Positions 10,899 through 45,038 of a stretch of 64,000 nucleotides of DNA are shown here, one piece after another; within the stretch, counting starts at the first letter, position 1; each line of letters starts with the position of its first letter. A program made the position numbers and the translations under genes. The notes beneath the pieces were generated by a model that did not search any database, was not told where the DNA came from, and saw nothing but the letters and a program-made list of their open reading frames with translations. This DNA is from Planctomycetota bacterium (GTDB lineage Bacteria > Planctomycetota > UBA1135 > UBA2386), in assembly GCA_016794425.1 (NCBI GenBank), contig JAEUHR010000043.1:128141-192140 (forward strand), written 5' to 3'.

Positions 10899-12554
<1,656 letters not shown>

Positions 12555-12799
12555 CCGGCGCCGGCGGCGGGGGTGCGGCCATTGGCGCGGCGCCGTCGCC
12601 CGGGTATGACTTTGGGCCACCAAGTCCGGCCCTGCCGGGCTCGGCGCGTCGCTGCGTGCGCCCATGGCACGGGGCCGGCGCCGCCGCGCCACCGTCGGTC
12701 CCTGCCGCGCGTCTCTCGTCCGCCGCCGAAGTTGACCTCCCGAAACAAGTAGCCGCCGCCGGCGATCCGAAAGATCCCGAGCCGCCGGTCCGAGACGCG

Positions 12800-13576
12800 A
12801 TGTTCCGCCGCAATCCCAGAGCAGCCGACCCCGACCGGGACGCCGGTCTGCAAGAGGACATGGTCGTCATCGTCGACCAGTCCGTGAATCCGTACCTGGT
12901 GCTGTTCCACGAGCCGGCCGGCTACCGTGCCGAACAGGTGCGGGCGCTGCGCAACCGGCTGGTGGCGATGAACCCCGACGGCGAGCCGAAGACGCTGGTC
13001 GTGACGTCGGCGGTGCGTGACGAAGGCAAGACGATCGCTGCGCTGAACCTGGCGATGGCGATGGCCGAGCTCGAGCGGCAGCAGGTCGTGCTGATCGACG
13101 CCGACCTGCGGCGCCCGGGCTGCGAGCGCTACCTGAACCTGAACCCCGAGCCCGGCCTGACCGACGTGCTGCTCGGCCGCACGACCGTCGAGAAGGTGCT
13201 GCGCCCGGCGGGCTACCGGCAGCTGATGCTGATCGGACCCGGCACGCGCGTCGGCAATCCGGCCGAGGTGCTCAGCAGTTCGCGGCTCGACGAGCTGCTG
13301 CAGCGGCTCAAGGAGCGCTACCAGTACATCGTCGTCGACACGCCGCCGGTGCTGCCGTCGACCGACGCCGGCGTGCTGGCGTCGCGCACCGACGGCACGC
13401 TGGTCGTCGTGCGGCTCGAGAAGTCGATGAAGAAGCAGACGCGCGACGCGGTGCGGACGCTGCAGGACATGGGCGCCAACGTGCTCGGCTGCTTCGTCAC
13501 CGAGCTGCGCGGCGCCGATCCCGAGAGCGATCGGCGGCTCGCCTACGAGCCGCAGGCCGGTGAGGAGGGCACCTGA
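12800..13576 (+). CDS. soluble P-loop ATPase of the CpsD/CapB (BY-kinase) branch of MinD/ParA NTPases, lacking a C-terminal Tyr cluster
   Basis: Walker A VVTSAVRDEGKT, A' VVLIDADLRRP, Walker B YIVVDTPPV. The N-terminal EPAGYRAEQVRALRNRL is typical of the family. The tail ELRGADPESDRRLAYEPQAGEEGT has one Tyr only. The start is uncertain (12800 or 12860). Confidence 0.8.
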   Translation: MFRRNPRAADPDRDAGLQEDMVVIVDQSVNPYLVLFHEPAGYRAEQVRALRNRLVAMNPDGEPKTLVVTSAVRDEGKTIAALNLAMAMAELERQQVVLIDADLRRPGCERYLNLNPEPGLTDVLLGRTTVEKVLRPAGYRQLMLIGPGTRVGNPAEVLSSSRLDELLQRLKERYQYIVVDTPPVLPSTDAGVLASRTDGTLVVVRLEKSMKKQTRDAVRTLQDMGANVLGCFVTELRGADPESDRRLAYEPQAGEEGT

Positions 13577-13578
13577 CC

Positions 13579-14364
13579 GTGTCGGGCTTCAAGGAGACGT
13601 TGAAGGACGCGGTGCGGCAGATGTCGTTCCGCACCTCGTTGGACAGCCTGAAGAAGAAGGGCGTGCAGCAGGTCAACGTGCTCGGCATCGATCGCATCAT
13701 CGCGCTGATCGAGGCCGCCGTGCACCGCAGCCTGAAGTCGCGGCTGGTCGGCGTCGAACGCGAGGCCGTCGCCGACGCGACGAAGGCCGAGTTCCTGCGC
13801 ATGCTGCGGACCAACGAGGACCTGCAGCGGCAGAAGAGCGAGATCGAGCGGCAGAAGGAGATGGTCGAGGACGAGGTCGACCAATTGCGCCGCGAGATCG
13901 CCAGCCAGCAGCAGGCCCTCGAGCTGCGGCTCGAGGAGGGGGCGCTGTCGATGGCGGCGCGCTACGAGGGCGAGAACGCGGCGATCGCCGCGAAGGTGCA
14001 CGAGGTGCTGAAGGCGCTGGCCGCCGCCGGCAGCTCGTCGATCACCGACGCCGAGGAGCGCGTGATGGCGCTGGTCATGGACATCGTCTCGGTCGAGCGC
14101 CAGTCCGCCGACGAGGCACGCCGCGCGCTGCGCGACCGCGAGGTCGACACGCTGCAGCGCCGGATCAAGAAGCTGTCGGAATCGCTGGACCTGACCGAGC
14201 AGCGGCTGCAATCGGTCGCGGCGATGAAGAGCCTCGACGGCGGCATCTCGTCGATCTACCGCGAGGTGCAGGGCGTCGACTTCGGCGACGTCCAGGCCGG
14301 CAAGAAGAAGGAACTGATGGCCGAGATCTTCAAGGCGAACCTGAAACTGCAGAAGAAGCAGTGA
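13579..14364 (+). CDS. coiled-coil protein (261 aa), no recognised family
   Basis: GTG start 2 nt after the previous stop, preceded by GAGGAGGG (13562-13569). Heptad-rich, charged segments (EDLQRQKSEIERQKEMVEDEVDQLRREIASQQQALELRLEE; REVDTLQRRIKKLSESLDLTEQRL). Confidence 0.65.
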   Translation: MSGFKETLKDAVRQMSFRTSLDSLKKKGVQQVNVLGIDRIIALIEAAVHRSLKSRLVGVEREAVADATKAEFLRMLRTNEDLQRQKSEIERQKEMVEDEVDQLRREIASQQQALELRLEEGALSMAARYEGENAAIAAKVHEVLKALAAAGSSSITDAEERVMALVMDIVSVERQSADEARRALRDREVDTLQRRIKKLSESLDLTEQRLQSVAAMKSLDGGISSIYREVQGVDFGDVQAGKKKELMAEIFKANLKLQKKQ

Positions 14365-14398
14365 GCCCTGGGTCGGCCGTACTCACGAGACCACGAAC

Positions 14399-15472
14399 AT
14401 GAGCGACACGAAGCAGACGGAAGACGCGCCGAAGAAGGACCACGGCGTGCTGTACATCGGCATGGACCTCGGCACGTCGCGGACCTCGGTGTCCGCCAGC
14501 AACGGCGTGCGGGAGACCGTCTACTCGATGGTCGGCTACCCGAAGGACGTCGTCAGCATGAAGCTGCTGAAGAAGGAGGTCCTGTTCGGCAAGGAGGCGC
14601 TCGAGAAGCGTCTGTCGCTGAAGCTCTACAAGCCGCTCGAGAAGGGCGTGCTGAAGTACACCGGCGACGCCGCCAAGGACGCCGAGGCGAAGGCCAACCT
14701 GAAGGCCGCCCAGGACCTGATCGGCGAGGCGATCCGGCTGGCGAAGCCGCGCAAGGACGAGCTGGTCTACTGCGTGATCGGCGCGCCGGCCGAGGCGTCG
14801 GTGAAGAACCGCGAGGCGATCATCGAGGCGGCGCGCGCGCACGTCGACTCGGTGATGCTGTGCAGCGAGCCGTTCTCGGTCGCCTACGGGCTCGACTGGC
14901 TCGAGGACGTGCTGGTCGTCGACATCGGCGCCGGCACGACCGACCTGTGCCGCATGCACGGCACGATGCCCGAGGAGACCGACCAGGTGATGTACGACAT
15001 CGCCGGTGACGCGATCGACGAGGAGCTGTCGCGCCGGATCACCGAGACGTGCCCGGGCGCGCAGTTCACGATCCACATGGTCAAGGACATCAAGGAGCGC
15101 TACGGCTTCGTCGGCGACGCGCCGGAGCGCTGCATGGTCGACCTGCCGGTCGACGGCAAGCCGACCGCGTTCGACCTGACCGACCAGATCCGCGCGGCCT
15201 GCTCGATCCTGATCGACCCGATCGTCAAGGGCATCCACAAGCTGATCGCGTCGTTCGATCCGCAGTTCCAGACCAAGCTGAAGAACCGCGTGCTGCTCGC
15301 CGGCGGTGGCTCGATGGTCAAGGGCCTCGACAGCGCGGTCGAGAAGGCCATGAAGGAACGGCTCGGCGGCGGCAAGGTCATCCGCATCGAAGAACCGATC
15401 TACGGCGGCGCGAACGGTGCGCTGAAGATCGCGCACGACATGCCGGCGGACTTCTGGGAGCAGCTCAAGTAG
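14399..15472 (+). CDS. MamK-family bacterial actin-like protein
   Basis: Actin-fold motifs MDLGTSRTS, VIGAPAEAS, VVDIGAGTTDL, LLAGGGSMVKGL and GGANGALKIA. MamK-like strings recalled from Magnetospirillum MamK are VGYPKDVVSMKLL, SEPFSVAYGLD and the C-terminal PADFWEQL. Confidence 0.85.
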   Translation: MSDTKQTEDAPKKDHGVLYIGMDLGTSRTSVSASNGVRETVYSMVGYPKDVVSMKLLKKEVLFGKEALEKRLSLKLYKPLEKGVLKYTGDAAKDAEAKANLKAAQDLIGEAIRLAKPRKDELVYCVIGAPAEASVKNREAIIEAARAHVDSVMLCSEPFSVAYGLDWLEDVLVVDIGAGTTDLCRMHGTMPEETDQVMYDIAGDAIDEELSRRITETCPGAQFTIHMVKDIKERYGFVGDAPERCMVDLPVDGKPTAFDLTDQIRAACSILIDPIVKGIHKLIASFDPQFQTKLKNRVLLAGGGSMVKGLDSAVEKAMKERLGGGKVIRIEEPIYGGANGALKIAHDMPADFWEQLK

Positions 15473-15518
15473 GGCGCGGCGCTGCAGCGGGCGCGCTGCG
15501 CGCGCGGCTGAGCGCCGC

Positions 15519-15568
15519 GGGGCGGGTGGGAGGGGGTGGGGCGAGGGGGCGGCGGGCGGCGAGCGGGG
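15519..15568 (+). other. G-quadruplex-type G-tract cluster
   Basis: GGGG-C-GGG-T-GGG-A-GGGGG-T-GGGG-CGA-GGGGG (15519-15549), with further GGG/GGGG runs to 15568. It starts 47 nt after the MamK-like stop, on the sense strand. Confidence 0.6.
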
Positions 15569-15664
15569 CTCGCGCCCGGGGCTGACGCGGGGGTGGTTCC
15601 GGTGCTTTCGGCTGACCCAAACCGGGCCAAGCCAGTCAGGGCCTGGGCTTTGCGCCTGTGTTCT

Positions 15665-15694
15665 TGCCAGTGCCAGTGCCCGTGCCCGTGCCCG
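15665..15694. repeat. hexanucleotide tandem repeat (TGCCAG)2(TGCCCG)3
   Basis: Five head-to-tail hexamers read directly at 15665-15694, in the intergenic space between convergent genes. Confidence 0.8.
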
Positions 15695-15705
15695 CGGCGC
15701 CTCGC

Positions 15706-16428
15706 TCAGCGGACTTCGTACTGGGCTTCGAGGATCTCTTGCAGCTGGTAGAAGTCTTGGATGTCGTGGCTCGGCTCGGTCGCGCCGACCTCGTCGGTGT
15801 GGCGGCCGCCGCGGCGGATGCGGGCGGTCCACCAGCCTTCGGCGTTGCAGGGATCGATGTCGTGCGTCGGGTTGTCGCCGACGTAGAGGCAGCGGTTGGG
15901 TGGCAGGGCCAGGCGCTGCAGCACGCGGCGGTAGAGCTTCGGGTTCGGCTTGCTGAAGCCGACCTGGTCGGTGAAGAAGATCGCCGACGGGGTCAGGAAC
16001 TCGAGCACGTTGAGCCGGACGAGCTTCTCGGCCTGCTTGATCGTGATGCCGGCCGAGACGATGCCGCGCACGAGCTTGGTCGTCGCGAGCCACTTCAGGA
16101 CCTCGTAGACGTCGTCGTGGACCTTGAACTCGCGCCACTTGGTCTCGTGGTAGGCGGCGACGCCGGCGGCGACGATCACGGCGCGGTTGTGGCCGGCGGT
16201 CGATTCGGGACCCAGACGGTCGAGCACTTTGTCGAAGTGGCCGCCGTAGTTGCTCGAGAACTCGGCGATCACTTCGTCGAGTTCGCGCGTCGCCTCGTCG
16301 CGTTCGGCGCGCAGCCCGGCGGCGATCATCGCTTCGATCGCAGCGCGGCGGGCCTTGCCGGCGAACGCGGACGTCGAGAACAGCGTGTCGTCGATGTCGA
16401 AGAAGATCGCGTCGAGGCCTCGGCTCAC
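15706..16428 (-). CDS. HAD-superfamily hydrolase
   Basis: Motif I FFDIDDTLF, motif II-like VSAG, motif III-IV SKPNP...YVGDNPTHDI. The GTG start at 16428 forms a GTGA overlap with the upstream gene's stop (16425-16427). Confidence 0.8.
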   Translation of the reverse strand: MSRGLDAIFFDIDDTLFSTSAFAGKARRAAIEAMIAAGLRAERDEATRELDEVIAEFSSNYGGHFDKVLDRLGPESTAGHNRAVIVAAGVAAYHETKWREFKVHDDVYEVLKWLATTKLVRGIVSAGITIKQAEKLVRLNVLEFLTPSAIFFTDQVGFSKPNPKLYRRVLQRLALPPNRCLYVGDNPTHDIDPCNAEGWWTARIRRGGRHTDEVGATEPSHDIQDFYQLQEILEAQYEVR

Positions 16429-17012: not shown

Positions 17013-19583
17013 TCAGGGCTTGCGCACGTCGGTGATGTGCGCCTGCACCATCACCATCAGGCTGCGGTTCTCGTCGGCCGAGCCTTCCTGCTTGAACAGG
17101 AACGAGACCAGCGGCAGCCGGGCCAGGATCGGCACTTCGGCGCGGCGCTCCTTGGTCAGCACCTGGCGCAGGCCGCCGATCAGCACCGTGCCGCCGTCCG
17201 GCACCTTCGCGGTGGTCGAGAAGTCGGTCACCGTGAGGTTCGGCAGCTGCAGCGTCACCGGCAGCGTCGAGCCGGCCAGCGACGTCGTGAACGTCGGGAT
17301 CGGGCGCTGCAGTTCGGCGACGGTCGGGTTCAGGTTCAGCGTGATGTACTTGCGGTCGTGGTGGATGACCGGCGTCACGTCCAGCACGATGCCGTCCTGG
17401 ATCACGTCGATCTTCGGGTCGGCGATGAACGCCGCCTGCGCCACTTCGACGTCGAAGTCGCGCACGTAGGCGGTCTGGTTGATCACTGCGACGTGGCCGC
17501 GCTCGCGGTTCAGCACCGACAGGATCTGGCTGTTCATGATCTCCGCGTCCTGCCGCTTCTCGACGGCGCGCAGGATCATGTTCAGCTGGATGTCGTCGAT
17601 CAGCGTCCAGCCGGCGGTCATGCCGCCGGTCGGGCTCAGCACGCGGCCGAGGTCGTTGGCGAAGAAGTTCTCGGTGCGGGCGCGCACGTCGCCATCGCCG
17701 CCGTCGTTGAAGAACATGCCGGCCAGCGGGTTGGCGGCCGGGTCACCGGTGCCGCCGTTGTCGAAGCCGCGCGAAGCGTTGTTCTGCAGGCCGCTGGTGA
17801 GGTCGTCGGTCGTGACCGTGTCGCCCTTGTTGCCGGAGCCGCCGAGGCCGCGGAAGTCGACGCCGATCTCGGTCAGGAAGTTGCGCGAGATGGTCAGGAA
17901 CTTCGAGTCGATCGTGACGATCGGCGTCGCGAAGCGGCGCATGTCGTTCAGGACCTGGATCACCTTCGCGTGCATCTCCGGGCTCGCCTGCACGGACAGC
18001 AGGCCGGTCTCCTCGGGGTTGATCGCGACGCCTTCCGACTCCCAGTACTTCGGGTCGGTGGCTTCCTTCAGGTTGGTCACCAGGTCGGCGAGCTCGATGC
18101 CGGCGACCGGGTCGTCGCCTTCGCTGCCGGTGCGCGGCGTGTCGTCGCTGCTCTCACCGGGGATCGTGTCGATGCGCGGCGGCAGGAACTGCGTGCGCTT
18201 GAAGATCAGATCCTTCACCGGGTAGATGTCGCTGACGATCGTGCCGGCGGCTTCCGACTTGTTGCCGATCACGACGACGCCGTTCTTCACGGTCCAGGCG
18301 AGGTTCTGGCTGCGCCCGATCATGAAGTTCAGGAAGTTCTCGAGGGTCAGCGAGCCGGCGAGCTCGATCACGACCTTGAGGCTCTCGCTGCCGATGATCT
18401 CGCGCGCCTGCGGCGTGGTCAGGATCTGCACGCCGGTGATCAGGTTCAGGTTCTTGACGACTTCGAGGAAGTCGCCGGTCTCCTCGGTGTAGGTCAGCTT
18501 GCCGACCTGCTCGGTGCGGATCTTGTCCCACACGGCCTGGTCCTGCGGGTCGACGACCTTGATCTTGGCGTTGCGCGCCGCGCGGCCGTTGGCCTTCTCC
18601 CACGTCGCCTGGTCGAGGTTCAGGATCGCCGTCTGCGGGATCTTCAGCTCACCATCGGACTCGATCATCGCGCGGATCGCCTTCGCGCGCTCGTCGTACC
18701 AGCGGGTGGTGACGTCGTTGCGGCCGGCCTTGACCGCCGCGTTGTGCATCTCGAACGCGATGCTGTTGTGCGGCTCGATCTCGAGCGCGCGGGCGGCGAG
18801 CTCCTGCGACCGGCTGAACGCACGCTGCTCGAACGCGAGCTGTGACTCCTGGATGTAGCCGTCGACCTTGGCGCGGCGGCGCGCCTCCAGCTCGGCGTTC
18901 TCCTGGCGCAGGCGTTCGGCCAGTTCGGCGTTCTGCTTGGCGACGTTCTCGCGCTGCTGGTCGTCGTAGAGCCGCTGCGCTTCGTCCGTGGCCGCGCGCA
19001 CGTCCTGCGGCAGCTGAGCCCAGTCGTAGTCGTCCTTCAGTTCGATCGTCAGCGCGGCGATGCGCAGTTCCTCGAGCGCGCCGGCGTAGTTCTTCGCCGC
19101 CATCGCCTCGCGGGCGGTCTGCAGCTTCGCCATCACTTCGGCGCGCGCGCGTTCCTCGCCGATCTGGCGCAGGCGCATCTGCTCTTCGCCGAACGTGTTG
19201 ATGCGGCCGATCGGCTCACCGAGTTCGGCCTGCACCGACGCGAGCAGCGTGCGGACCTGTTCGTCGGCGGGCATCAGCTCCTTCGCGCGCAGCAGTTCGC
19301 TCTTGGCCGCTTCGAGCTGGCCGTTCGCGCGCAGGTTCTGCGCGTTCTCGAGGTACTTCGCGACCAGCGCGCGCTGGCGCTCGTTGCGCACGCGCTCCTC
19401 GAGCGTGCCGCCCTGCGGATCCTGGCTCTGCACGCCGCGGCCGCCGGTGCCCGAATCGGTGGTCGGCGTGCCGGCGGGACTGGAGTCCTGAGGCGTGTTC
19501 GACTCGGGCGGAGTCGAGCACGAGGAGCCGAGAACGGCCGCGGTCAGGGAAGCAGCGAGAAGGCGCGGGTGTTCGAGAGCCAT
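17013..19583 (-). CDS. secretin-family outer-membrane channel (paralogue 1) with long N-terminal helical extension
   Basis: C-terminal secretin domain (LNMILRAVEKRQDAEIMNSQILSV...VPDGGTVLIGGL...VPILARLPLVSFLFKQ). N0/N1-like modules (ENFLNFMIGRSQNLAWTVKNGVVVIG). Signal ending LGSSC (non-canonical lipobox). About 270 aa of helical repeat follow the signal. ATG checked at 19581-19583. Confidence 0.85.
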   Translation of the reverse strand: MALEHPRLLAASLTAAVLGSSCSTPPESNTPQDSSPAGTPTTDSGTGGRGVQSQDPQGGTLEERVRNERQRALVAKYLENAQNLRANGQLEAAKSELLRAKELMPADEQVRTLLASVQAELGEPIGRINTFGEEQMRLRQIGEERARAEVMAKLQTAREAMAAKNYAGALEELRIAALTIELKDDYDWAQLPQDVRAATDEAQRLYDDQQRENVAKQNAELAERLRQENAELEARRRAKVDGYIQESQLAFEQRAFSRSQELAARALEIEPHNSIAFEMHNAAVKAGRNDVTTRWYDERAKAIRAMIESDGELKIPQTAILNLDQATWEKANGRAARNAKIKVVDPQDQAVWDKIRTEQVGKLTYTEETGDFLEVVKNLNLITGVQILTTPQAREIIGSESLKVVIELAGSLTLENFLNFMIGRSQNLAWTVKNGVVVIGNKSEAAGTIVSDIYPVKDLIFKRTQFLPPRIDTIPGESSDDTPRTGSEGDDPVAGIELADLVTNLKEATDPKYWESEGVAINPEETGLLSVQASPEMHAKVIQVLNDMRRFATPIVTIDSKFLTISRNFLTEIGVDFRGLGGSGNKGDTVTTDDLTSGLQNNASRGFDNGGTGDPAANPLAGMFFNDGGDGDVRARTENFFANDLGRVLSPTGGMTAGWTLIDDIQLNMILRAVEKRQDAEIMNSQILSVLNRERGHVAVINQTAYVRDFDVEVAQAAFIADPKIDVIQDGIVLDVTPVIHHDRKYITLNLNPTVAELQRPIPTFTTSLAGSTLPVTLQLPNLTVTDFSTTAKVPDGGTVLIGGLRQVLTKERRAEVPILARLPLVSFLFKQEGSADENRSLMVMVQAHITDVRKP

Positions 19584-19988
19584 CGGTTCACGCTCGATGC
19601 GTACGAGATTGCGGGGAGCACCGCGGGGACGGTGTTCTGTCACGTGGCGGCGACAAGCGACCGGTGAACGAAACGGCGGAGGGCACCGCCGCCGATCCGG
19701 AGGGGGACGTTCGGAACCGGGCCGGTCGAGAGGGACTTGCAGCCGACACGTGAGCGGACAGTCCTGTCGGGCCCGGAACGGGCGCGGCAGGGGAGGCGCA
19801 AAGTAGCCACGTCAGCACCCTTGTGCCAGTCCTTTTCGTGCCCTGCCATGGCCCGCTCGCGGGCCGTGCCCGGCCGCGGCAGCCCGCCAACCGTCGGGGT
19901 TCCAGCGGCCCCGGTCCGCTCGGCCGACCGGCGCAACCACCGACGCAAAACGACCGGACCAGCAACGACGCGGCCCACCGCGCCGCGT

Positions 19989-20046
19989 GGGCGGGGTGGG
20001 CCGGGTCGGGGCTGCCGGGGGCTGCCGGGTGGGCTCGCTGGGGTGG
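19989..20046 (+). other. G-tract cluster on the + strand (C-rich on the minus-strand transcript), directly after the exbD stop
   Basis: Nine G3-G5 runs between 19989 and 20043. On the minus-strand RNA this is a C-rich, G-poor stretch 3' of exbD (stop at 20053-20055), similar to a Rho-utilisation site. Confidence 0.45.
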
Positions 20047-20052
20047 CGCTGG

Positions 20053-20601
20053 TTACTTGGCGCCGAGGCCGCCGCCGTAGTTGACCTCCGTGAAGCCGGC
20101 TTCCGCGCACGCGTCGGTCGTCTTGGCGACGTCCTCGTAGTAGGTGCCCGGGTAGGCCTCGATGACACAGGCCATCAGCTTCTTGCCGCCGGTTGCCTTG
20201 TCCGGCACCTGGCTCGACGGATCGGCCGCGATGCGCTTCAGCTCCTTCAGCACGTCGTCGAGGTTGTAGAGCGGCTTCGGTCCCACTTCCCACTTCACGC
20301 GGTGGTCGCGCAGCTTGAAGCGGAACGGACGCCCGGTGTTCGGGTTGACCGCACCAGCCGAGCCGCCCGCGGCATACTCGGGCGTGCCGGCGCTCTCGAC
20401 GTAGATCTTCACCGAGAGCTGCTCCTGCGGCTCGACGACCGAGCTCTGGCTGCCCTTGTCCTTGGGCAGGTAGGCCGACAACTTCGACTCGAGCACTTTG
20501 AAGTCGATGCAGATGAAGAAGATGATCATCAAGAACACGACGTCGATCATCGGCGTCATGTCCGGCTTGACCTCTTCCTGGGCGTCGTCGAGCGCGCTCA
20601 T
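20053..20601 (-). CDS. exbD: ExbD/TolR-family protein (paralogue 2, 182 aa)
   Basis: KPDMTPMIDVVFLMIIFFI N-terminal TM motif. ATGA overlap with the upstream exbD (20598-20601). The periplasmic domain is longer than usual. Confidence 0.85.
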   Translation of the reverse strand: MSALDDAQEEVKPDMTPMIDVVFLMIIFFICIDFKVLESKLSAYLPKDKGSQSSVVEPQEQLSVKIYVESAGTPEYAAGGSAGAVNPNTGRPFRFKLRDHRVKWEVGPKPLYNLDDVLKELKRIAADPSSQVPDKATGGKKLMACVIEAYPGTYYEDVAKTTDACAEAGFTEVNYGGGLGAK

Positions 20602-21134
20602 TTCGTCAACCTCGGGTTCTTCTCACCGGTTTCCTTGTCCTGCTCCGACATCGCGAGCTCGACCTTCCAGAAGGCGATCTCCGGCTGGCTGCACTGCTTC
20701 ATGATCTCGCCGATGTAGTGCCACTCGGTCCACTTGTCGGCGCGGATCAGGATCGGGTCGTCGATCAGTGGCACCATCCTGCCGCCGATGTCCTCTTCCT
20801 TCAGCTTGAGGCGTCCGGTGTTGAGGCCCTGCTGCCGGATGTCCAGCAGCAGCTGCTTGATCGGGGCGAAGTTCTTGCCGTGCACCGCCGGGTCGTAGGC
20901 AACCTGCTTCTCGAACACCACCGAGCCGTTCTGCAGCACGTTGATGATCGGCCGGTTCTCCGGCGGCGTGTCGTCGGGCTCCTGGTAGACCGCCCGCGGC
21001 AGGATCAGGTCTTCGAGGTTCTTCTGGCTCAGGTCGATGACCAGAACGAAGAAGATCATCAGCAGGAACACGCAGTCGATCATGGGCGTCATGTCCATCT
21101 CGACGTTCTGCTGCACCAGTTTTCGGACGTCCAT
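20598..21134 (-). CDS. exbD: ExbD/TolR-family protein (paralogue 1, 178 aa)
   Basis: The internal ATG (MDVRKLVQQNVEMDMTPMIDCVFLLMIFFVLV) was checked at 21132-21134. ExbD TM motif present. Confidence 0.85.
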   Translation of the reverse strand: MDVRKLVQQNVEMDMTPMIDCVFLLMIFFVLVIDLSQKNLEDLILPRAVYQEPDDTPPENRPIINVLQNGSVVFEKQVAYDPAVHGKNFAPIKQLLLDIRQQGLNTGRLKLKEEDIGGRMVPLIDDPILIRADKWTEWHYIGEIMKQCSQPEIAFWKVELAMSEQDKETGEKNPRLTK

Positions 21135-21259
21135 TCGAGGTCTCCTTGGAGTGGGGCCGCCGCGGAGGCGGCCCGTCATCACATCCGCGGCACGTTCCCA
21201 ACGGCCGGGAGGATGCTCAGTTCAGTGGCTCCGTTTGCCGAGGGGGATGCGCCGGGGGC

Positions 21260-21985
21260 TCACTTGCCGCGGAAGCGCTCGAACAGGTCTTCGCTGATCG
21301 CGTTGATCTCGGTGGACGTCTTGATGACGCGATTGCGCAGGTAGAAGAAGGAGACACCGACCGGGATCGCGACCGAGAGGCCGAAGATCGTCGTGATGAG
21401 GGCCATCTTGATACCGCCTGCCAGGGTTGCCGGGCTGACCGAGCCGCCGGCGTCGGCGATCGTGCCGAACGTGACGAACATGCCGGACACCGTGCCGAAC
21501 AGGCCCATCATTGGTGCGATGGCGGACAACAGCGACAGCCAGCCGATCTTCTGGAACAACTTGACCGACTCCTCGGTCTGCATTTCGCGCAGCGACACCT
21601 GCATCGTCTCGAACGAGTGGCCGAGCTTCGACAGGCCGGCGCCGACGCAGTTCGTCAGGTAGTTCTTCTCCTGCTCGCACAGCTCGACCGCTTCCTGGAA
21701 GTTCTCGGCGTCGAACAGCGCCTCGAGTTCGCCGATCAGGTCCGGCGGCGCGAGCTTCTCGCGCTTGATCGTCATGAAGTTCTCGATGATCAGCGCGACG
21801 GCGACGATCGACATCACGATGATCAGGTAGCCGATGAGGCCGGCGTTCTCGTAGGCAAACACGTCCGCGATGGTGCTGCGCTTCCTGGGCGCGGCGGCGT
21901 CGCCCTGGGCGAGCAGGCCGGTGGCCAGGAGCAGCGGAGCGCTGACGGCAAGGAAGCGGACGAACGGCACTTGGACGCGGATCAT
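21260..21985 (-). CDS. exbB: MotA/TolQ/ExbB-family proton channel with N-terminal signal peptide
   Basis: LLSAIAPMMGLFGTVSGMFVTF and GGIKMALITTIFGLSVAIPV channel motifs. Signal MIRVQVPFVRFLAVSAPLLLATGLLAQG. ATG checked at 21983-21985. Confidence 0.9.
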   Translation of the reverse strand: MIRVQVPFVRFLAVSAPLLLATGLLAQGDAAAPRKRSTIADVFAYENAGLIGYLIIVMSIVAVALIIENFMTIKREKLAPPDLIGELEALFDAENFQEAVELCEQEKNYLTNCVGAGLSKLGHSFETMQVSLREMQTEESVKLFQKIGWLSLLSAIAPMMGLFGTVSGMFVTFGTIADAGGSVSPATLAGGIKMALITTIFGLSVAIPVGVSFFYLRNRVIKTSTEINAISEDLFERFRGK

Positions 21986-22105
21986 GGGGAGCTGGGACTC
22001 CTGCGCTTGGCTATGCAGGTGGTGGGGAGAGGGGCGGATTCGAAAAGGGGGTGCGGAAGTCTGCTGGACACCGTGCACCCTGTGAAGGGGGCACCGGCGA
22101 AAGTT

Positions 22106-23227
22106 CTATTTGGCTTGCTCGGCCTTTGCGGCGGCGGCCCACGGCGACGCCGGGTAGCCGTCGATCACGTTCTGGAAGTAGCCGTTCGCGCGTGCCTTGA
22201 AGCTGTCGCCTTCGCGCTCGGGCCCGAGTGCCAGGAGGCACCGGCCGAGGTAGTAGTTGGCCTTGGCGCTGGCCTCGCCGCTGGTGACGTCGAACGCGCA
22301 GGCCTTGGCCAGCGCCAGTTGCGCGCGGCGGAAGTCGTCGGGCCGGTTGTTGGCGACCGCGGCCAGCAGGATCGCTTCGCCCTCGCCGGCGTGGCCGGCC
22401 GCCACGAGTTCCTGCTGGTCGCTGCTGGTCAGCGCGCGGAAGAACTGCTCGGCGCGGTCGAAGTCGCGTTCGCCGAGGTAGGTCTCGCCTTCGCCGACGC
22501 GGGCCTGGATCTTCAGCGCGCGCAGTTCGGCGTCGTCGGGCGACGGCGTGCCGAGCGCGGCGTCGATCGCCGACGCGGCGGCCTGGAACGCCGAGCGCGC
22601 CTCCGGCGCTTTGCCGTCGGCCAGCAGCGTCAGCGCCAGCTCCGACTTCGCGCGGGCGCTCCAGATCGCGCCGAAGCCCTCGCGGGTGGCGCGATCGTCG
22701 AGCTCGCGCAGCGTCGTCGCGGCCTGGCCGCCGACACCGGCGAGGCGCTCGGCGCGGCCCGCGAGCAGCAGCGCTTCGGGCGTGCGCCAGTGGTTGGCAT
22801 TGGCGGTCAACCAGGCCTTCGCGCGCTCGCCGGCGGTCGCGGCAGCGCCCTTGTCGGCACCGATCGCGGCGACGGCGCACTTGACCAGGAAGAACTCGGC
22901 GTCGACCTTGACCAGCGCGCGGTCGGTCTGGTTCTGGGCCTCGCCGAACATCTGCGCCGCGTGGCGGAAGTCGCCCTTCTCCATCGCGGCGCGGCCGACC
23001 AGGTAGGCATCGGGCAGGTTGCTCCACTCGATCGCGAGCACCTGGTGCGCCGGCACTTCGACGCTGTCGTTGCCGCGCTTGGCGCGCACGCCCGACAGCA
23101 GGAACTCGGTGATCTCGAGGCCACGCACGCGCGCACCGTCCTTCTTGACGATGGTGTCGTTGACCTTCTGCGCGGTGGCGAACGGCGCCAGCAGCGCGCC
23201 GGCGACCAGGATGGGGAGGTAGCGCAT
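22106..23227 (-). CDS. exported TPR-like helical-repeat protein (373 aa)
   Basis: Signal MRYLPILVAGALLAPFATAQ. A small beta module is followed by Ala-rich helical repeats (ANYYLGRCLLALG, GETYLGERDFDRAEQFFRAL). Confidence 0.7.
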   Translation of the reverse strand: MRYLPILVAGALLAPFATAQKVNDTIVKKDGARVRGLEITEFLLSGVRAKRGNDSVEVPAHQVLAIEWSNLPDAYLVGRAAMEKGDFRHAAQMFGEAQNQTDRALVKVDAEFFLVKCAVAAIGADKGAAATAGERAKAWLTANANHWRTPEALLLAGRAERLAGVGGQAATTLRELDDRATREGFGAIWSARAKSELALTLLADGKAPEARSAFQAAASAIDAALGTPSPDDAELRALKIQARVGEGETYLGERDFDRAEQFFRALTSSDQQELVAAGHAGEGEAILLAAVANNRPDDFRRAQLALAKACAFDVTSGEASAKANYYLGRCLLALGPEREGDSFKARANGYFQNVIDGYPASPWAAAAKAEQAK

Positions 23228-23243
23228 CGGAGGGATCGGTGGG

Positions 23244-26111
23244 TCAGCGGTTGAAGTTGAAGTAGCTCAGCAGCTTCAGGCCGTCGGCGCCGTGCCCGCG
23301 CAGGGTCTCGAAGTTGTCGGTGGCCCTGGCGATGCGGTAGAGCTTGTCGGCGTACTCCTTGTACTCGCCGTTCTTCGCACCGGCCTGCTTGGCGAACCAG
23401 TACGCCTCCCAGTGGAAGCGGTACCAGTCGAGACTGTACTTCTTGACGTCGGGGCGCAGGCCCCAGGTGCGGTACTCGCCGAAGTACTTGTTGTAGGCTT
23501 CCGCCGGCTTGTCGAGGCCGACGATGCGCACCGGCGCGCCGGTGCCCGAGATCTCGAACCAGCCGCCCAGCGCGCGGCAGATCTGGCGCTTGATCTCCCA
23601 CTGCTGCGGGTTCGCCTTCTCGGCGGCGACCAGCATGTCGTAGGCCTCCTGGAACTTCTGCTGGCGCAGCAGCGCCTCGCCGATCATCGGCCGCACCAGT
23701 TGGTCGACGACGCGCACGACGCTCTCGGTCTTGTCGGCGCCGTAGAGGTCGAGCGTCTTGCGCGCGACCTCGTCGACGCGCTGCCACTGGCCGAGCTGCT
23801 CGGCGGCCTGCATCGTGCCGACCAGCACGGCGAGCTGCGGCTTCGGCGAGTTCGCGATGTAGGAGATACCGAGCGACAGCAGCTTGCCGCGCACCGCGTC
23901 GACCGCGGCCTGCGCGGCCGCGATCTTGCCGTCTTCGGCCTTCTTCGCGATCGCCTGGTCCAGTTCCTTGGTCAGCGCGGTGATCTGGTCCTGGTAGGCC
24001 TTGAACAGTTCGGTCGCGAGGCGCGAGCCGCGCACCTCGTCGAGCGCACGCAGCTGGGCGTAGACCTCTTCGGCCTTGTCGAACTCGCCGAGGTCGGCGT
24101 GCAGGCGGCCCAGGTAGGCGAGCACCGCCGGCAGATTGGCCTCACCGCCCTTGGCGAAGTTCGTGACGTAGGTGCGCGCCGCTTCGACTGCGGCCGGGTA
24201 CTTGGTCAGGTCCTTGGCCAGCTTCAGTTCGTCGTCGCCGCGGGCCTCGGCGTAGGTCATCTGCACCTCGGTGTAGGCGGCCTCGGCCTGCGCGTTGGCG
24301 CGCGCCTGCTGCTTGCCGTTGTCCTTCGCATCGATCGCGTTCTGCCCGCTCCACTCGCGGTAGGCCTGCAGCGCCTGCCGCGCCGACGCGAAGTCGCCCT
24401 GCTGCGCGTGCGCCTTGGCGATGCGCACGCGGGCCTGTTCGTAGAACACGAAGGCCGGCCCGACGTTGCCGTACTGCGTGATCGCGTCGGCGAACTTCTT
24501 GTCGTTGAACGCGTCGTTGCCGGCCTTCCAGAACAGCTTGTCGCCAACCGTGCTGGAGTACTGCGTGATCCCGACCGTGGCCTCGGCGTAGAGCGGGTCG
24601 AAGAACGGGTCGTTCTTGGTTGCGCGCTTGAGCTGCGTCATGGCGCGGTCGAGCGTGTCGGCGGCGTCGGCGGCGCGCTTGGTGTCGGTAGGGCCGTAGC
24701 GCCTCAGGCCCTCGTTGAGCGCCAGCACCGATTCGAGGTAGCGGTCGGTGACGCCGAACGCGGTGCCCAGCAGCTGCCAGGCCTCGAGGCCGAGCTTCTG
24801 CTGCTCGTCCTGGTTCATCGCGCCGATCGCGCGGCGCAGGCGCTTGATCGCCTCCTCGTAGTTCTTGTTCTGGAACTCGCCCTTGCCGATCTCGAACAGC
24901 AGCGTGCCGGACACCAGCCCGCTCTGCACCGCGAGGATGTCGCGCAGCACGGCCTTGGCCTTGACGCCGACGTAGTCGCTCGGGTGCTTGTCGTTGATGC
25001 GCTGGGTCATCGCGAGCGCCTGCGCGACCTTCTGCGCGTCGCCGGACTCGGCGAGGAAGCGCGACTCGGCCAGCAGCATCTGGTGGCCCCACTGCTCGCC
25101 GACGACGTCGAACAGGTCGGCGCCCTTCTCGCCGAACTTCGTCATGTGCTCACGGAACTTCGTGAACAGCGCGGCCGTGTCGGCCGAGCCTTCGCGGATC
25201 ATGACCTCCGCGGTGCGCACGTAGACCTCCTGCAGCATCTCGAACAGGAAGCCCTGCATCTCGCCGGTCAGACCGAGTTCGTCGCTGCTCTCGAGCGACT
25301 TGGCGATCTGGTCGACGGTGCCCTTGTAGAGGTCGATCGCGTCGCCGACCTTGCCGTCGACTTCGTGGCACTGCGCGATCTCGAACAGGCCACGCAGGCC
25401 GATCGCGGTTTCTTCGCCGGCCTCGAGCACCATCTCGGTCAGGTCCTCGATCGCGCGCGCGACGTAGACGCTGCGGTCCGTCTTGACCGCGCGCGCCTGC
25501 TCGCGGCTCAGCACGCCGCGGCGCATCCACATCAGGTAGTACTCGATGTCCTTCTCGGGGTCCTTCCGCAGCGGCCGCAGGTGGTCCATCACCTTCGTGC
25601 ACGCGTCGATGCCGGCGCGGAACACCGTCGCCGCCTCCTCCTCGAGTTCCTTGACGCGCTCGGGGTCCGACTCGCGCGCGATGTCGAGCTCCTCGACCAG
25701 GAACTGGCCGAACTCCTGCGACGCGTTGGCGAGCGTCGAGCGGGCCTCGATCTGCACGCCGGTGTCCGACGAGCGTTCGACCAGCTCCTTCGACTTGTCG
25801 ATCGCCTCCTTGAACAGCTGGCGCTGCTGGGTGCGGTCGCTGCGCGAACGCGCGCCGTAGTAGGCGACTTCGACCGCGAGCTGCGCGATCTTGTCCTGGT
25901 CCGAGGCGCCGCGGAACTCGCCGGCGAGGCGCTCGGCCTCCTCCTTGGCGAGCTCGATGAAGCGCATCTCGCGCGCCAGGGAGCGCACGAACGAGATCTC
26001 GCGGTCGAGCTTCTGCTGTTGCGCGAACAGCGCCGGCGACAGCGAACCGAGGGCGAGGAGCAGGAGCCCACTTTGGCCGCAGGTGCGGCGCGGGCAGAAG
26101 CGTGCAGTCAC
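23244..26111 (-). CDS. large exported helical-repeat (TPR-like) protein (955 aa)
   Basis: GTG start with signal GLLLLALGSLSPALFAQ. All-helical repeat composition throughout and balanced K/E/A/L usage, unlike shadow ORFs. It begins 16 nt upstream of the next gene. Confidence 0.7.
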   Translation of the reverse strand: MTARFCPRRTCGQSGLLLLALGSLSPALFAQQQKLDREISFVRSLAREMRFIELAKEEAERLAGEFRGASDQDKIAQLAVEVAYYGARSRSDRTQQRQLFKEAIDKSKELVERSSDTGVQIEARSTLANASQEFGQFLVEELDIARESDPERVKELEEEAATVFRAGIDACTKVMDHLRPLRKDPEKDIEYYLMWMRRGVLSREQARAVKTDRSVYVARAIEDLTEMVLEAGEETAIGLRGLFEIAQCHEVDGKVGDAIDLYKGTVDQIAKSLESSDELGLTGEMQGFLFEMLQEVYVRTAEVMIREGSADTAALFTKFREHMTKFGEKGADLFDVVGEQWGHQMLLAESRFLAESGDAQKVAQALAMTQRINDKHPSDYVGVKAKAVLRDILAVQSGLVSGTLLFEIGKGEFQNKNYEEAIKRLRRAIGAMNQDEQQKLGLEAWQLLGTAFGVTDRYLESVLALNEGLRRYGPTDTKRAADAADTLDRAMTQLKRATKNDPFFDPLYAEATVGITQYSSTVGDKLFWKAGNDAFNDKKFADAITQYGNVGPAFVFYEQARVRIAKAHAQQGDFASARQALQAYREWSGQNAIDAKDNGKQQARANAQAEAAYTEVQMTYAEARGDDELKLAKDLTKYPAAVEAARTYVTNFAKGGEANLPAVLAYLGRLHADLGEFDKAEEVYAQLRALDEVRGSRLATELFKAYQDQITALTKELDQAIAKKAEDGKIAAAQAAVDAVRGKLLSLGISYIANSPKPQLAVLVGTMQAAEQLGQWQRVDEVARKTLDLYGADKTESVVRVVDQLVRPMIGEALLRQQKFQEAYDMLVAAEKANPQQWEIKRQICRALGGWFEISGTGAPVRIVGLDKPAEAYNKYFGEYRTWGLRPDVKKYSLDWYRFHWEAYWFAKQAGAKNGEYKEYADKLYRIARATDNFETLRGHGADGLKLLSYFNFNR

Positions 26112-26239
26112 GGGCAGACTCCGGGATTGGCTAGGCTGCGTTCGTACGGGCGATGCCGCGGCCGTCGCGCGACGGCCTGGGCGCGGATTCGGCGCGCGGG
26201 GAGGGGGCTGCCACAGCGCGCCACAGAGGGGAACGGCCG

Positions 26240-26267
26240 ACTATAGCGACGCGTTCACTCGTTCCAA
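26240..26267 (-). promoter_or_regulatory. candidate sigma70-type promoter TTGGAA-N16-TATAGT (minus strand)
   Basis: The reverse complement of 26262-26267 is TTGGAA and that of 26240-26245 is TATAGT. It lies about 130 nt upstream of the 955-aa gene start. Motif match only. Confidence 0.3.
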
Positions 26268-26380
26268 CCGCGTGCTGTCCGTTGCGCGGTGCGCGGTCGG
26301 CCGGGCCGGAAACGACCGCGGCCGCCGTCGCCCGGGGGCGCCGGCGGCCGCGGGCCGCGTTGGGTGCGAGCGAGCGCCGC

Positions 26381-29110: not shown

Positions 29111-29274
29111 GCTGGGAAAGCCTGCCAGATAGCGATCGGGGAGAGGGGCGATGCCACCGCGCTCGACGTCACCGGCCTGCATGCCACAGGAACCCGGAAG
29201 AGGGCGGCGAGAATGGCGGTTCCGGACGATTCCTCGCGCGTTCGTGGGAGCTTCGCACGGGCGAGGGACGCCGG

Positions 29275-29303
29275 ACGGTAGCGAGCCCTTCCCGCAGGGT
29301 CAA
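29275..29303 (-). promoter_or_regulatory. candidate promoter TTGACC-N17-TACCGT (minus strand) upstream of secretin paralogue 2
   Basis: The reverse complement of 29298-29303 is TTGACC and that of 29275-29280 is TACCGT. Motif match only. Confidence 0.25.
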
Positions 29304-30147: not shown

Positions 30148-30157
30148 GGCGGCCGTT

Positions 30158-31255: not shown

Positions 31256-31339
31256 GCGCGCACAGCGTGCCGGCCGCGCCGCGCCGTGCAAGTGCGCACC
31301 TTGACCCGGTGGCGTCCGCTCGCATCCTTGTCCGGCCCG

Positions 31340-34138: not shown

Positions 34139-34322
34139 GGTCGCCGCATTCGCCGGCGGCAGTCCATTGCACCGCTGCCTCGGGCTCGCTAGCCTGCGGC
34201 GCTGCGGCTCGGTCAGCCGCAACTCGGTCAGCCCGTCGCGGTACCGCCGCGCGGGTGCTTCTGCTGGTCCATCTTCGTTTCGCTAGCCGGCGCCCGCACA
34301 GACGGGGCGCGGGGGTTTCCAC

Positions 34323-45023: not shown

Positions 45024-45038
45024 ACTAGCGCTGCGCCG

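Follow-up and report, generated by a model that had tools for sequence, protein, structure and literature searches.

The closest described relative of the actin reported here is MamK (PDB 5jyg, 5ljv), the organiser of magnetosome chains, which works with MamJ, MamY or McaAB as partners. Its known coiled-coil partners include McaB of AMB-1, which binds MamK filaments directly (PMC13170167), and a Mad coiled-coil network that acts with MamK in RS-1 (10.1101/2025.02.24.639979) and whose proteins are encoded in magnetosome gene clusters (PMC12748827). MamK-related actins are also described from other bacteria. BeeR, from the Verrucomicrobiota, is a MamK-related three-stranded tubular actin (PMC11929497, PDB 8r2n), and saltatorellin, a MamK-like protein from Saltatorellus ferox Poly30, forms filaments in E. 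coli and Magnetospirillum, as shown by fluorescence in these heterologous hosts (bioRxiv 10.1101/817700). That preprint does not discuss an adaptor or an ATPase, the words "operon" and "neighbo(u)r" being absent from it.

The locus examined here lies in a 64,000-nucleotide stretch of planctomycetotal DNA, referred to throughout as the window. Its actin is of an already known kind, homologues being labelled "MamK family actin-like protein" by NCBI. The two partner proteins encoded with it, a coiled-coil adaptor and an ATPase, appear to be undescribed; a literature search found no paper describing their partnership with a MamK-like actin, as had been suspected when the DNA was read without database searches (the sequence-only reading). 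Our preferred reading, held with roughly even confidence, is that the locus is a chromosomal, non-magnetosome actin cytoskeleton module composed of a filament, an adaptor and a kinase-type regulator.

Module layout and the MamK-family actin

Three co-directional genes occupy positions 12800-15472 of the window, in the order ATPase, coiled-coil adaptor and MamK-family actin, and an ORF check of the sequence recovered all three just as the sequence-only reading had them. The BY-kinase-type P-loop ATPase, a soluble protein of 258 aa, runs from an ATG at 12800 to a stop at 13576 (12800..13576, + strand). The gene for the adaptor (261 aa; 13579..14364, +) opens with a GTG placed 2 nt past the ATPase TGA and preceded by GAGGAGG, in agreement with the strong GGAGG site claimed earlier, and is followed by that for the actin (357 aa; 14399..15472, +). 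Between the end of hutU (12554) and the ATPase start lie 245 nt (12555..12799, +) that are presumed, from the gap itself, to contain the promoter; promoter and repeat scans found neither a sigma-70-like site nor a direct-repeat (iteron) array in this region. A GC-rich inverted repeat (15475..15519, +) that begins 3 nt past the actin stop, with arms of 22 nt (77% complementary) and a 1-nt spacer, is a possible terminator, which the consensus terminator scan missed because it has no T tract.

The adaptor and actin frames have a third-position GC of 0.96, as expected for coding sequence in a genome of 72% GC. The three genes are not chance ORFs; the coiled-coil ORF alone has 279 database homologues, of which the best 120 are all at least 67% identical to it. 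The module sits in the chromosome between hut genes and a HAD hydrolase gene. This conserved housekeeping context is found again in a 7.19-Mb contig and in other MAGs, and the hutU and HAD flanks are retained in the closest clade only.

When compared with family models, the actin scored 407.3 bits against the NCBIfam MamK model NF040964 (cut-off 400), as against 202 bits for BeeR (cut-off 530), 59 for MreB and 37 for salactin. Searches of PDB sequences gave the same ranking, with MamK (5jyg) at E 2.7e-72, BeeR at 9e-41 and MreB at 1e-11. The earlier assignment of this ORF to the MamK family, and not to MreB, ParM, FtsA or Hsp70, is upheld by both searches. All five of the actin-fold motifs proposed for it were found in place (MDLGTSRTS, VIGAPAEAS, VVDIGAGTTDL, LLAGGGSMVKGL and GGANGALKIA), as were the MamK-like strings VGYPKDV, SEPF..YGLD and DFWEQL, which align with MamK of PDB 5jyg. 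Catalytic residues are kept, E157 (SEPF) corresponding to MamK E143 and D175 (VVDIGAG) to MamK D161, and the protein is proposed to be an ATP-dependent filament former. The backbone of the actin tree was not resolved.

Alignment of the window actin with the MamK chain (347 residues) spans chain residues 11-341, and the C-terminal P..(F/Y)W.QL is retained, but the window protein has 8 residues inserted behind the GVL motif relative to MamK and is encoded with a BY-kinase and a soluble coiled-coil adaptor, in contrast to the MamK partners named above. Like BeeR it is a MamK-related actin of non-magnetotactic PVC-group bacteria, but it falls far below the 530-bit cut-off of the BeeR model and lacks the BeeR-defining disordered N-terminal domain. 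Saltatorellin is likewise a MamK-like actin from non-magnetotactic, high-GC planctomycete relatives. Here the comparison is one of primer sequences only: the published reverse primer ends the protein in YWEQLK-stop, where the window has DFWEQLK-stop and a related locus (L001) DYWEQLK-stop, and the published forward primer had no match among the loci compared.

The BY-kinase-type ATPase

The ATPase passed the TIGR01007 model for the polysaccharide tyrosine-autokinase domain (123.5 bits, cut-off 108) and scored 162 bits against TIGR03018, under its cut-off of 230. Its best PDB matches were BceF, CapA/CapB, VpsO, Etk and Wzc at E 1e-29 to 1e-21, with MinD/FleN at 1e-8. MinD models gave 34-39 bits (cut-offs >200) and ParA gave 25 (cut-off 180). 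ParA/MinD membership was rejected, as these models score below cut-off and the Walker A sequence SAVRDEGKT is without the signature lysine (KGGxxGK[ST]). On the PDB E-values and the absent lysine, the part of the sequence-only reading that placed the protein in the CpsD/CapB (BY-kinase) branch stands, whereas the part that made it a ParA/MinD-like positioning ATPase does not.

The full BY-kinase motif set is present and visibly conserved in an alignment of 22 sequences. It comprises Walker A, TSAVRDEGKT, of the AxxxxGKT form (aa 69-78; 13004..13033, +), Walker A', VVLIDADLRRP, hhhhDxDxR (aa 96-106; 13085..13117, +), Walker B, YIVVDTPPV, hhhhDTPP (aa 176-184; 13325..13351, +), and the ExxRxxR motif AEQVRALR (aa 44-51; 12929..12952, +). 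ExxRxxR mediates ring oligomerisation in Wzc and CapB. Within it, E45, Q46, R48 and R51 were invariant in a 9-sequence alignment of actin-linked orthologues, the motif being visibly retained in the 22-sequence alignment too, and D100, D102 and R104 of Walker A' were also invariant among nine sequences. The MFRR start is common to the aligned orthologues. A conserved N-terminal strand was also observed at aa 20-30.

The C-terminal tail RRLAYEP (13532..13552, +) carries a single tyrosine, Y249, as a candidate autophosphorylation site, and a tail tyrosine is retained in 16/16 aligned crown-clade orthologues. Tails of relatives read YYYPY (L034, L037) or YY (L041, L043), with one tyrosine in L044 and none in the actin-linked L045 and L049. 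The earlier label "Tyr-cluster-less" fits the window protein. Because the crown clade keeps its tail tyrosine and relatives carry YYYPY or YY, the ATPase is more likely a minimal kinase than a non-kinase; autophosphorylation cannot be universal, since the L045 and L049 tails are without tyrosine.

The fold family and every catalytic motif are shared with the CapB/PtkA-type BY-kinases and with the kinase domains of Wzc, Etk, BceF and VpsO. The differences are a tail with one tyrosine in place of a cluster, the lack of nearby polysaccharide genes and of any membrane activator of the CapA, TkmA or Wzz type, and the obligate linkage of the ATPase gene to the actin-adaptor pair. Soluble BY-kinases normally need a transmembrane activator. 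Pfam scans of 46 ORFs across the 64-kb window, the three module genes included, found no CapA/TkmA/Wzz-type activator gene for this soluble protein and no Wzz, Wza, GNVR-type or glycosyltransferase gene, as the sequence-only reading had also noted for the activator and the polysaccharide neighbourhood.

The same absences among the 46 ORFs favour an alternative in which the ATPase would not be a kinase but an ATP-switched oligomer, positioning or patterning the adaptor-filament system by MinD/ParA-like logic. BY-kinases and MinD/ParA do have a common P-loop fold, the window protein is without the tyrosine cluster and two relatives (L045, L049) are without any tail tyrosine. We nevertheless regard a non-kinase role as unlikely, given the missing ParA/MinD signature lysine, MinD scores of 34-39 bits where 200+ are required, intact BY-kinase ExxRxxR, A' and B motifs, the tail tyrosine kept in the crown clade and the YYYPY tails of relatives.

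The coiled-coil adaptor and its C-terminal helix

The adaptor matched no Pfam or NCBIfam family and no DNA-binding domain. Its initial description as heptad-rich was right as to the coiled coil but incomplete, the protein being a member of a family with a sequence-specific C-terminal motif. An AlphaFold2 model consists mostly of long helices (59-128, 132-150 and 155-221). The N-terminal domain (aa 1-78, core KKGVQQVNVLGIDRIIALIEAAV; 13579..13812, +) is conserved in the family and was modelled with low confidence. This domain was considered as a receptor for the ATPase, an idea that was rejected on its presence in 22 ATPase-less loci. In the family alignment, a linear motif, GISSIYREVQG (aa 222-232; 14242..14274, +), falls in a flexible linker (residues 218-237 have pLDDT <50 in the AlphaFold2 model), with VQG as the part that 69 diverse members of the family have kept. 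Beyond this disordered linker AlphaFold2 predicts a separate helix at 240-260, which coincides with the C-terminal amphipathic helix KKKELMAEIFKANLKLQKKQ (aa 242-261, core LMAEIFKANLKL; 14302..14361, +), a putative filament-binding peptide.

This C-terminal helix, LMxxIFxANLxL, is the hallmark of the adaptor family. A regular expression for the motif gave 99 matches in 1.5 million residues of six-frame ORFs, and 63/99 fell within the last 60 residues of the ORF immediately 5' of an actin, where only ~0.1 matches would be expected by chance; the enrichment is partly circular, because the expression was written after the sequences had been seen. The iterated coiled-coil HMM may also drift, the sole counter-argument being the strict positional specificity. 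IFxxN is retained across phyla, with a near-universal Asn within the hydrophobic face of the helix, and three tandem copies of the motif occur in one adaptor (L046). At the other end of the protein, adaptors of other lineages carry GGDEF (L024, L032), PilZ (L063, L074) or PAS (L067) domains, or two receiver domains (L064).

McaB (PMC13170167) and Mad20/23/25/26 (PMC12748827) resemble the adaptor in being small coiled-coil proteins, and they attach to MamK filaments or organise them and change filament dynamics, but both are specific to magnetosomes, and McaB has a membrane anchor. The window adaptor showed no sequence relationship to the McaB/Mad proteins, the BW-1 Mad10 sequence is without the adaptor motif spacing, and the LMxxIFxANLxL motif is not mentioned in the consulted passages of the McaB (PMC13170167) and Mad (PMC12748827) papers.

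The helix might instead be a membrane-targeting sequence of the kind found in MinD and FtsA, with the actin bound through the coiled coil or VQG. It is amphipathic, lysine-flanked (KKKELMAEIFKANLKLQKKQ) and placed after a flexible linker, an arrangement typical of membrane-targeting helices in bacteria. Such helices conserve amphipathicity and not sequence, however, whereas here IFxxN and its Asn are kept across phyla. With three tandem copies in L046, and with actin as the sole partner that always co-occurs, membrane targeting seems rather unlikely, and filament binding remains the preferred role of the helix.

In plasmid-type segregation by ParM and ParR, the C-terminal helix of ParR docks on ParM. 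The window has a similar logic of parts, an actin-like filament protein and a small adaptor encoded upstream with a C-terminal helix that would dock on it, and could thus be read as a ParMRC-like (type II) DNA segregation system in which the coiled-coil protein is a ParR-like, centromere-bound adaptor. That reading is very unlikely. Centromere repeats are lacking, no direct-repeat or iteron array flanking the module (zero direct-repeat families in 12500-12850 and just one 2-copy 9-mer in 15440-15760), and no DNA-binding fold was detected in the adaptor by domain matching. The context is chromosomal and of a housekeeping kind, from hut genes to HAD hydrolase, the actin belongs to another subfamily, scoring as MamK and not ParM, and adaptors elsewhere have signalling domains.

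Gene linkage, proposed mechanism and significance

A coiled-coil gene was found directly 5' of a MamK-family actin in 76/82 genome loci, over a range of actin identity from 92% down to ~45%, and dozens of Planctomycetota MAGs have the adaptor-actin pair between flanking genes that are unrelated. The motif is also present 5' of mamK in three loci from MAGs of magnetotactic bacteria (L054, L068 and L081). For one of these, L081, an extension (L165) confirmed that the locus is a magnetosome gene cluster, as it contains a MamE-like protease, a CDF transporter, FeoB, a HEAT protein and a second actin.

The ATPase was found only in the window's broader clade. It is present in 14/15 crown-clade loci, the remaining one being a truncated contig, and in a further 8 genome loci of more distant relationship, of which 3 have it co-directional and 5 divergent. 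In metagenomes, 50/50 ATPase relatives of at least about 45% identity on a sufficient contig had the adaptor next, followed by the actin where the contig reaches. Unlinked relatives of the ATPase form a separate clade (98.5% NJ bootstrap), with no polysaccharide genes among the ORFs tested. Most loci with 57-73% actin identity are without the ATPase within 7 kb, and it is therefore dispensable for the core system. The trio proposed in the sequence-only reading is syntenic in related genomes, including those with changed hutU and HAD flanks, and its linkage is strict within that broader clade; what forms the conserved unit is the pair of coiled-coil and actin genes, of much greater age and wider distribution than the trio. 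Judged from this distribution, the ATPase is a clade-specific later addition to an old coiled-coil/actin core.

An ordinary exopolysaccharide BY-kinase adjoining the actin by accident, as passing TIGR01007 might suggest, is scarcely plausible when 50/50 metagenomic relatives (at least about 45% identity, with room) have the adaptor next, when the linkage survives flank turnover and inversion, and when Wzz, Wza and glycosyltransferase genes are missing from the 46 scanned window ORFs and no polysaccharide gene occurs in the tested ORFs of the unlinked sister clade. Passing the MamK model, and the adaptor motif lying 5' of mamK in magnetotactic-bacterium MAGs, one of them a confirmed cluster, would be in keeping with a remnant or satellite of a magnetosome gene cluster in an organism that is or was magnetotactic, but we give this little credence, since 0/46 scanned window ORFs are of mam type (no cation-diffusion (MamB/M), MamE/O-type protease or LemA (MamQ) gene was found by Pfam in the 64 kb, in line with the earlier remark on the lack of magnetosome context, and the actin differs in this from MamK as chain organiser), the housekeeping context recurs in the 7.19-Mb contig and other MAGs, and the pair turns up amid unrelated flanks in dozens of MAGs of Planctomycetota.

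Within the reading of the locus as filament, adaptor and kinase-type regulator, the analysis shows family memberships, motif conservation, gene linkage and the modular architecture of the adaptor; we infer the helix-actin contact, the kinase activity with its target, and the cellular role. The 357-aa MamK-family protein would form an ATP-dependent filament, and the 261-aa adaptor, dedicated to this actin, would dimerise through its long coiled coils. On a flexible tether, the adaptor's C-terminal helix (LMAEIFKANLKL) may dock on the actin, much as the ParR C-terminal helix does on ParM or as McaB binds MamK, leaving the N-terminal part to face a cargo or regulator. The soluble BY-kinase-type ATPase probably joined the operon in the window's clade and would provide the regulatory input for which adaptors of other lineages have fused GGDEF, PilZ, receiver or PAS domains. 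It would most likely act by ATP-dependent autophosphorylation on its tail tyrosine, or by phosphorylating the adaptor or actin on tyrosine, and either event could alter filament dynamics or adaptor engagement. Candidate cellular roles are shape change, organelle positioning and FtsZ-independent division.

A wider proposal, possible but doubtful, is that a MamK-family filament and a modular adaptor, docking by a near-universal LMxxIFxANLxL helix at its C-terminus, make up an ancient, widespread two-part cytoskeleton of Planctomycetota and neighbouring phyla that has been variously wired to signalling. If so, the inputs would be c-di-GMP (GGDEF/PilZ), two-component receivers, PAS domains and, in the window's clade, a dedicated cytosolic tyrosine kinase, and MamK as found in the magnetosomes of deep-branching magnetotactic bacteria would be one specialised branch in which the adaptor motif has been retained. 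In that case the window would contain the first bacterial actin system under tyrosine-kinase control, and the system might be what drives shape-shifting or FtsZ-less division in the Saltatorellus-like clade.

The module and its surroundings

Three genes lie in the same direction on the plus strand of the window, which has a GC content of 72%. As read from their ORFs, they encode an ATPase (258 aa; 12800–13576), a helical middle protein, here termed the adaptor (261 aa; 13579–14364), and an actin-fold protein (357 aa; 14399–15472). The adaptor gene has a GTG start 2 nt past the ATPase stop codon, with GAGGAGG ahead of the start, and the adaptor and actin frames have a third-position GC of 0.96. 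The three-gene module proposed in the sequence-only reading was thus recovered in full, and every motif string quoted there is present in the sequence. The module is flanked upstream by hutH/hutU and downstream by a convergent HAD hydrolase gene. A sigma-70-type promoter was not detected in the 245-nt gap upstream of the ATPase gene, and a GC-rich hairpin lies 3′ of the actin stop codon. No iteron-like repeats were found flanking the module, a result that speaks against a partition cassette of the ParMRC kind.

Domain scans of 46 window ORFs, the three module genes included, returned matches to housekeeping or envelope genes (mutL, thioredoxin, a response regulator, flagellin, ApaG, hutHU, the HAD hydrolase, two secretins, ExbB/ExbD, TPR proteins, UDG, PNPase, FeoB, an ECF sigma factor, an MFS transporter, and MlaE). 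As had been anticipated, neither magnetosome genes nor polysaccharide-export genes were found among these 46 ORFs. The gene for the ferrous-iron transporter FeoB (45029–47263, ∼30 kb from the module) was not counted as magnetosome context because FeoB is frequent in non-magnetotactic genomes. Downstream of the module, a minus-strand cluster (17013–29299) contains two large secretin genes (17013–19643 and 26384–29299), two ExbD genes, one ExbB gene, a 386-aa ORF of no assigned kind, and a gene for a 998-aa TPR protein; its secretin, ExbD, and ExbB part also adjoins the module in two other loci (L001 and L004). At 30095–34282, long ORFs of 1347 aa (plus strand) and 1374 aa (minus strand) overlap nearly fully, with domain matches (TPR) only in the former; the latter is probably a high-GC shadow ORF.

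The actin-fold protein scored 407.3 bits against the NCBIfam MamK family model (curated cut-off 400), compared with 202 bits for BeeR (cut-off 530) and 59 for MreB, with salactin, FtsA, and DnaK also far behind, and its earlier assignment to the MamK family therefore stands. MamK was likewise its best solved relative (E 2.7e-72, aligned over residues 11–341 of a 347-residue chain), followed by BeeR (9e-41) and MreB (1e-11), and the equivalents of MamK Glu-143 and Asp-161 are kept. Several close homologues already carry the NCBI name "MamK family actin-like protein," and saltatorellin, the MamK-like actin of Saltatorellus ferox (bioRxiv 10.1101/817700), is related to the window actin, although not the identical gene. 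The window actin is therefore of a known kind, a new member of a family whose occurrence outside a magnetosome context has already been published.

The adaptor family and its C-terminal motif

The middle ORF, which has no match in Pfam or NCBIfam, shares 100% identity with a hypothetical protein from a "Planctomycetes bacterium" MAG in NCBI. Of its 279 database homologues, the best 120 are all at least 67% identical, a degree of conservation that is unusually high for a protein that is no more than a coiled coil. An AlphaFold2 model built from a 42-sequence alignment (mean pLDDT 68.8, pTM 0.29, N terminus below pLDDT 50) predicted long helices at residues 59–128, 132–150, and 155–221, a low-confidence linker at 218–237, and a separate C-terminal helix at 240–260. 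The original description of this ORF as heptad-rich was correct in its length and in the start 2 nt after the preceding stop, but the protein is more than a coiled coil: alignment of 69 diverse family members revealed sequence-specific conservation of LxRRIxKL…TE, of S..+.VQG, and of a terminal L(M)xxIFxxNxxL. A regular expression for the C-terminal motif had 99 matches across six-frame ORFs totaling 1.5 million residues, and 63 of them lie within the C-terminal 60 residues of the ORF directly 5′ of the actin, where ∼0.1 would be expected; the expression was composed after the sequences had been inspected, so the size of this enrichment is optimistic. The position-specific signal itself is not in doubt.

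In other lineages, adaptors retain the C-terminal motif along with the coiled coil while the N-terminal domain varies, with interchangeable signaling domains: GGDEF (L024:5754–6869 and L032:4874–6916), PilZ (L063:4779–6851 and L074:4743–6821), two receiver domains (L064:3451–6954), or PAS (L067:5896–6870). Judged from domain content, these fusions link MamK-like filaments to c-di-GMP and two-component signaling in other lineages. In one ORF upstream of an actin (L046:6034–6915), a variant motif (GGMLAGLVQENAKLR) occurs three times in tandem in place of the single terminal copy. A separate set of long MamK-like proteins from low-GC organisms outside the window (P0247–P0269; 520–1230 aa) combines a conserved N-terminal coiled-coil domain with a C-terminal MamK-like domain (45–49% identical to the window actin), the two being separated by a long acidic or proline-rich disordered region; these proteins form one clade (99% neighbor-joining bootstrap). 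These were considered as Rosetta-stone fusions of adaptor and actin, but their N termini did not match the adaptor HMMs and they are retained as an analogy only.

The C-terminal motif likewise terminates the product of the gene directly 5′ of mamK in loci from MAGs of magnetotactic bacteria (L054, L068, and L081). The last of these, extended as L165, is a genuine magnetosome cluster with a MamE-like protease, a CDF transporter, FeoB, a HEAT-repeat protein, and a second actin. In this Desulfovibrionales cluster, a 216-aa protein (L165:8477–9127, equivalent to L081:6292–6957) ends in the motif MLRIIVEDNKLL as in the window adaptor, with mamK directly 3′ of it (L165:9156–10205). Segments of the form YS.A.V.Y.GLV..KRSGG recur in it, alongside a short coiled coil, and, apart from the protein itself, a database search recovered a single unnamed homologue. 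Its identity with Mad10 was rejected, as Mad10 of BW-1 (supplement, PMC13039770) is unrelated and its motif spacing is different. Coiled-coil proteins that bind or organize MamK have been described, namely McaB (PMC13170167) and Mad20/23/25/26 (10.1101/2025.02.24.639979); the portions of this literature consulted make no mention of a kinase partner, of the C-terminal motif, or of an adaptor family outside magnetotactic bacteria. Searches of the literature likewise returned nothing linking motif, adaptor family, or kinase partner to a MamK-type actin, and the adaptor family with its putative docking motif appears to be undescribed.

Identity and linkage of the ATPase

The ATPase had been described as carrying motifs of the CpsD/CapB branch and listed as a ParA/MinD-like NTPase, and the latter reading was not upheld. 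It passed the BY-kinase domain model TIGR01007 (123.5 bits, cut-off 108) and scored 162 bits against the PEP-CTERM-associated autokinase model, under that model's cut-off, whereas MinD/ParA models gave 25–39 bits (cut-offs about 200). Solved BY-kinases (BceF, CapA/CapB, VpsO, Etk, and Wzc) were matched at E 1e-29 to 1e-21, compared with 1e-8 for MinD/FleN. In 22 aligned orthologues, the Walker A, A′, and B motifs are conserved, as is ExxRxxR, and the ParA/MinD signature lysine is absent. The C-terminal tyrosine cluster is missing, as had been noted; the tail holds one tyrosine, Tyr-249 in RRLAYEP, the equivalent of which is present in 16 of 16 orthologues of the alignment from the crown clade (loci with actins at least 74% identical to that of the window). 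More distant actin-linked ATPases have tails with YYYPY, YY, one tyrosine, or none. We therefore interpret the protein as a BY-kinase whose tail is reduced, not as an ATPase of the MinD type, its kinase activity being putative; alternatively, it could function as an ATP-switched oligomer and lack kinase activity.

To survey relatives of the module, one genome per GTDB species was scanned with a 27-sequence actin alignment, which returned 80 loci with actin identities from 92% down to 45%. An adaptor-type gene lay directly upstream of the actin in 15 of 15 loci at actin identities of at least 74%, 30 of 31 at 57–73%, and 31 of 36 below 57%; the ATPase gene was present in 14 of 15 (the exception being a truncated contig), 7 of 31, and 1 of 36, respectively. 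The expected synteny of the trio thus holds broadly for the adaptor–actin pair, but for the ATPase it holds only in the broader clade of the window. Beyond the crown clade, the ATPase gene is co-directional in L020, L034, and L037; in L041, L043, L044, L045, and L049 it lies 5′ of the adaptor gene in divergent orientation. The hut and HAD genes were rejected as module components because they occur only at actin identities of at least 74% and are flanks, and the distant ATPase-bearing loci consequently provide independent evidence of linkage. All-against-all clustering of the locus ORFs yielded no additional neighbor family both common among the loci and independent of the module genes. The remaining large clusters resembled shadow ORFs or merged groups, the HAD hydrolase being the one case checked. 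Six MAGs with near-identical module copies (L006, L007, L016, L071, L074, and L075) are labeled Brocadiaceae, Kuenenia, or Singulisphaera, which is implausible given actins 88–92% identical and contigs of about 70% GC, and these taxon labels are not to be trusted.

In the reverse direction, metagenome contigs were scanned with a 4-sequence ATPase alignment. Relatives down to about 45% identity were found in 53 loci (L085–L137), and the adaptor follows the ATPase in 50 of the 50 with enough contig, with the actin next wherever the contig reaches. A further 27 loci (L138–L164; ATPases 37–46% identical) have neither adaptor nor actin, and their ATPases form a separate clade (98.5% neighbor-joining bootstrap). 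The crown actin clade has 100% bootstrap, and the backbones of both the actin and the ATPase trees are without resolution. In view of the strict adaptor linkage and the separate clade of unlinked relatives, the ATPase is neither an incidental copy of an exopolysaccharide-operon kinase, an outcome the sequence-only reading had allowed for, nor part of the ancient adaptor–actin core. Its obligate partnership with the actin–adaptor pair in this clade appears to be undescribed. The unlinked sister clade (e.g. L145:2870–5636, L148:2526–5651, and L163:2768–5639) consists of soluble BY-kinase-like proteins with no tyrosine cluster in the seven tails examined, encoded downstream of a 640–800-aa ORF without a Pfam domain in the five loci inspected. 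Their placement in polysaccharide operons was rejected, as no Wzz/Wza matches were found among the neighbors tested.

Proposed mechanism and significance

For the working of the module, we infer that the tethered C-terminal adaptor helix would dock on the filament, the actin being the only partner that always co-occurs, although the helix could instead bind the membrane. The coiled coil would make the adaptor bivalent, and the BY-kinase may provide in trans the regulatory input that is fused to the adaptor in other lineages. The adaptor N-terminal domain was considered as the ATPase receptor: a narrow HMM (residues 1–78) found it in 22 of 24 ATPase-plus locus entries and, among ATPase-minus loci of the 57–73% band, only in L036. 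The idea was rejected because a broadened HMM found the domain in 22 ATPase-minus loci; it found none among partners of the unlinked ATPases. In the cell, the module may serve to change shape, to position a cargo, or to bring about division independently of FtsZ.

Cell division and shape change in planctomycetes proceed without FtsZ. To our knowledge, no partner, cargo, or function is known for MamK-type actins of bacteria that are not magnetotactic. The occurrence of the motif upstream of mamK suggests that the machinery for positioning magnetosomes may have been taken over from a general cytoskeletal system or passed on to one. The conserved adaptor with its short putative docking motif offers a direct experimental handle on the function of MamK-type filaments and the strictly linked tyrosine-kinase-type regulator a second.
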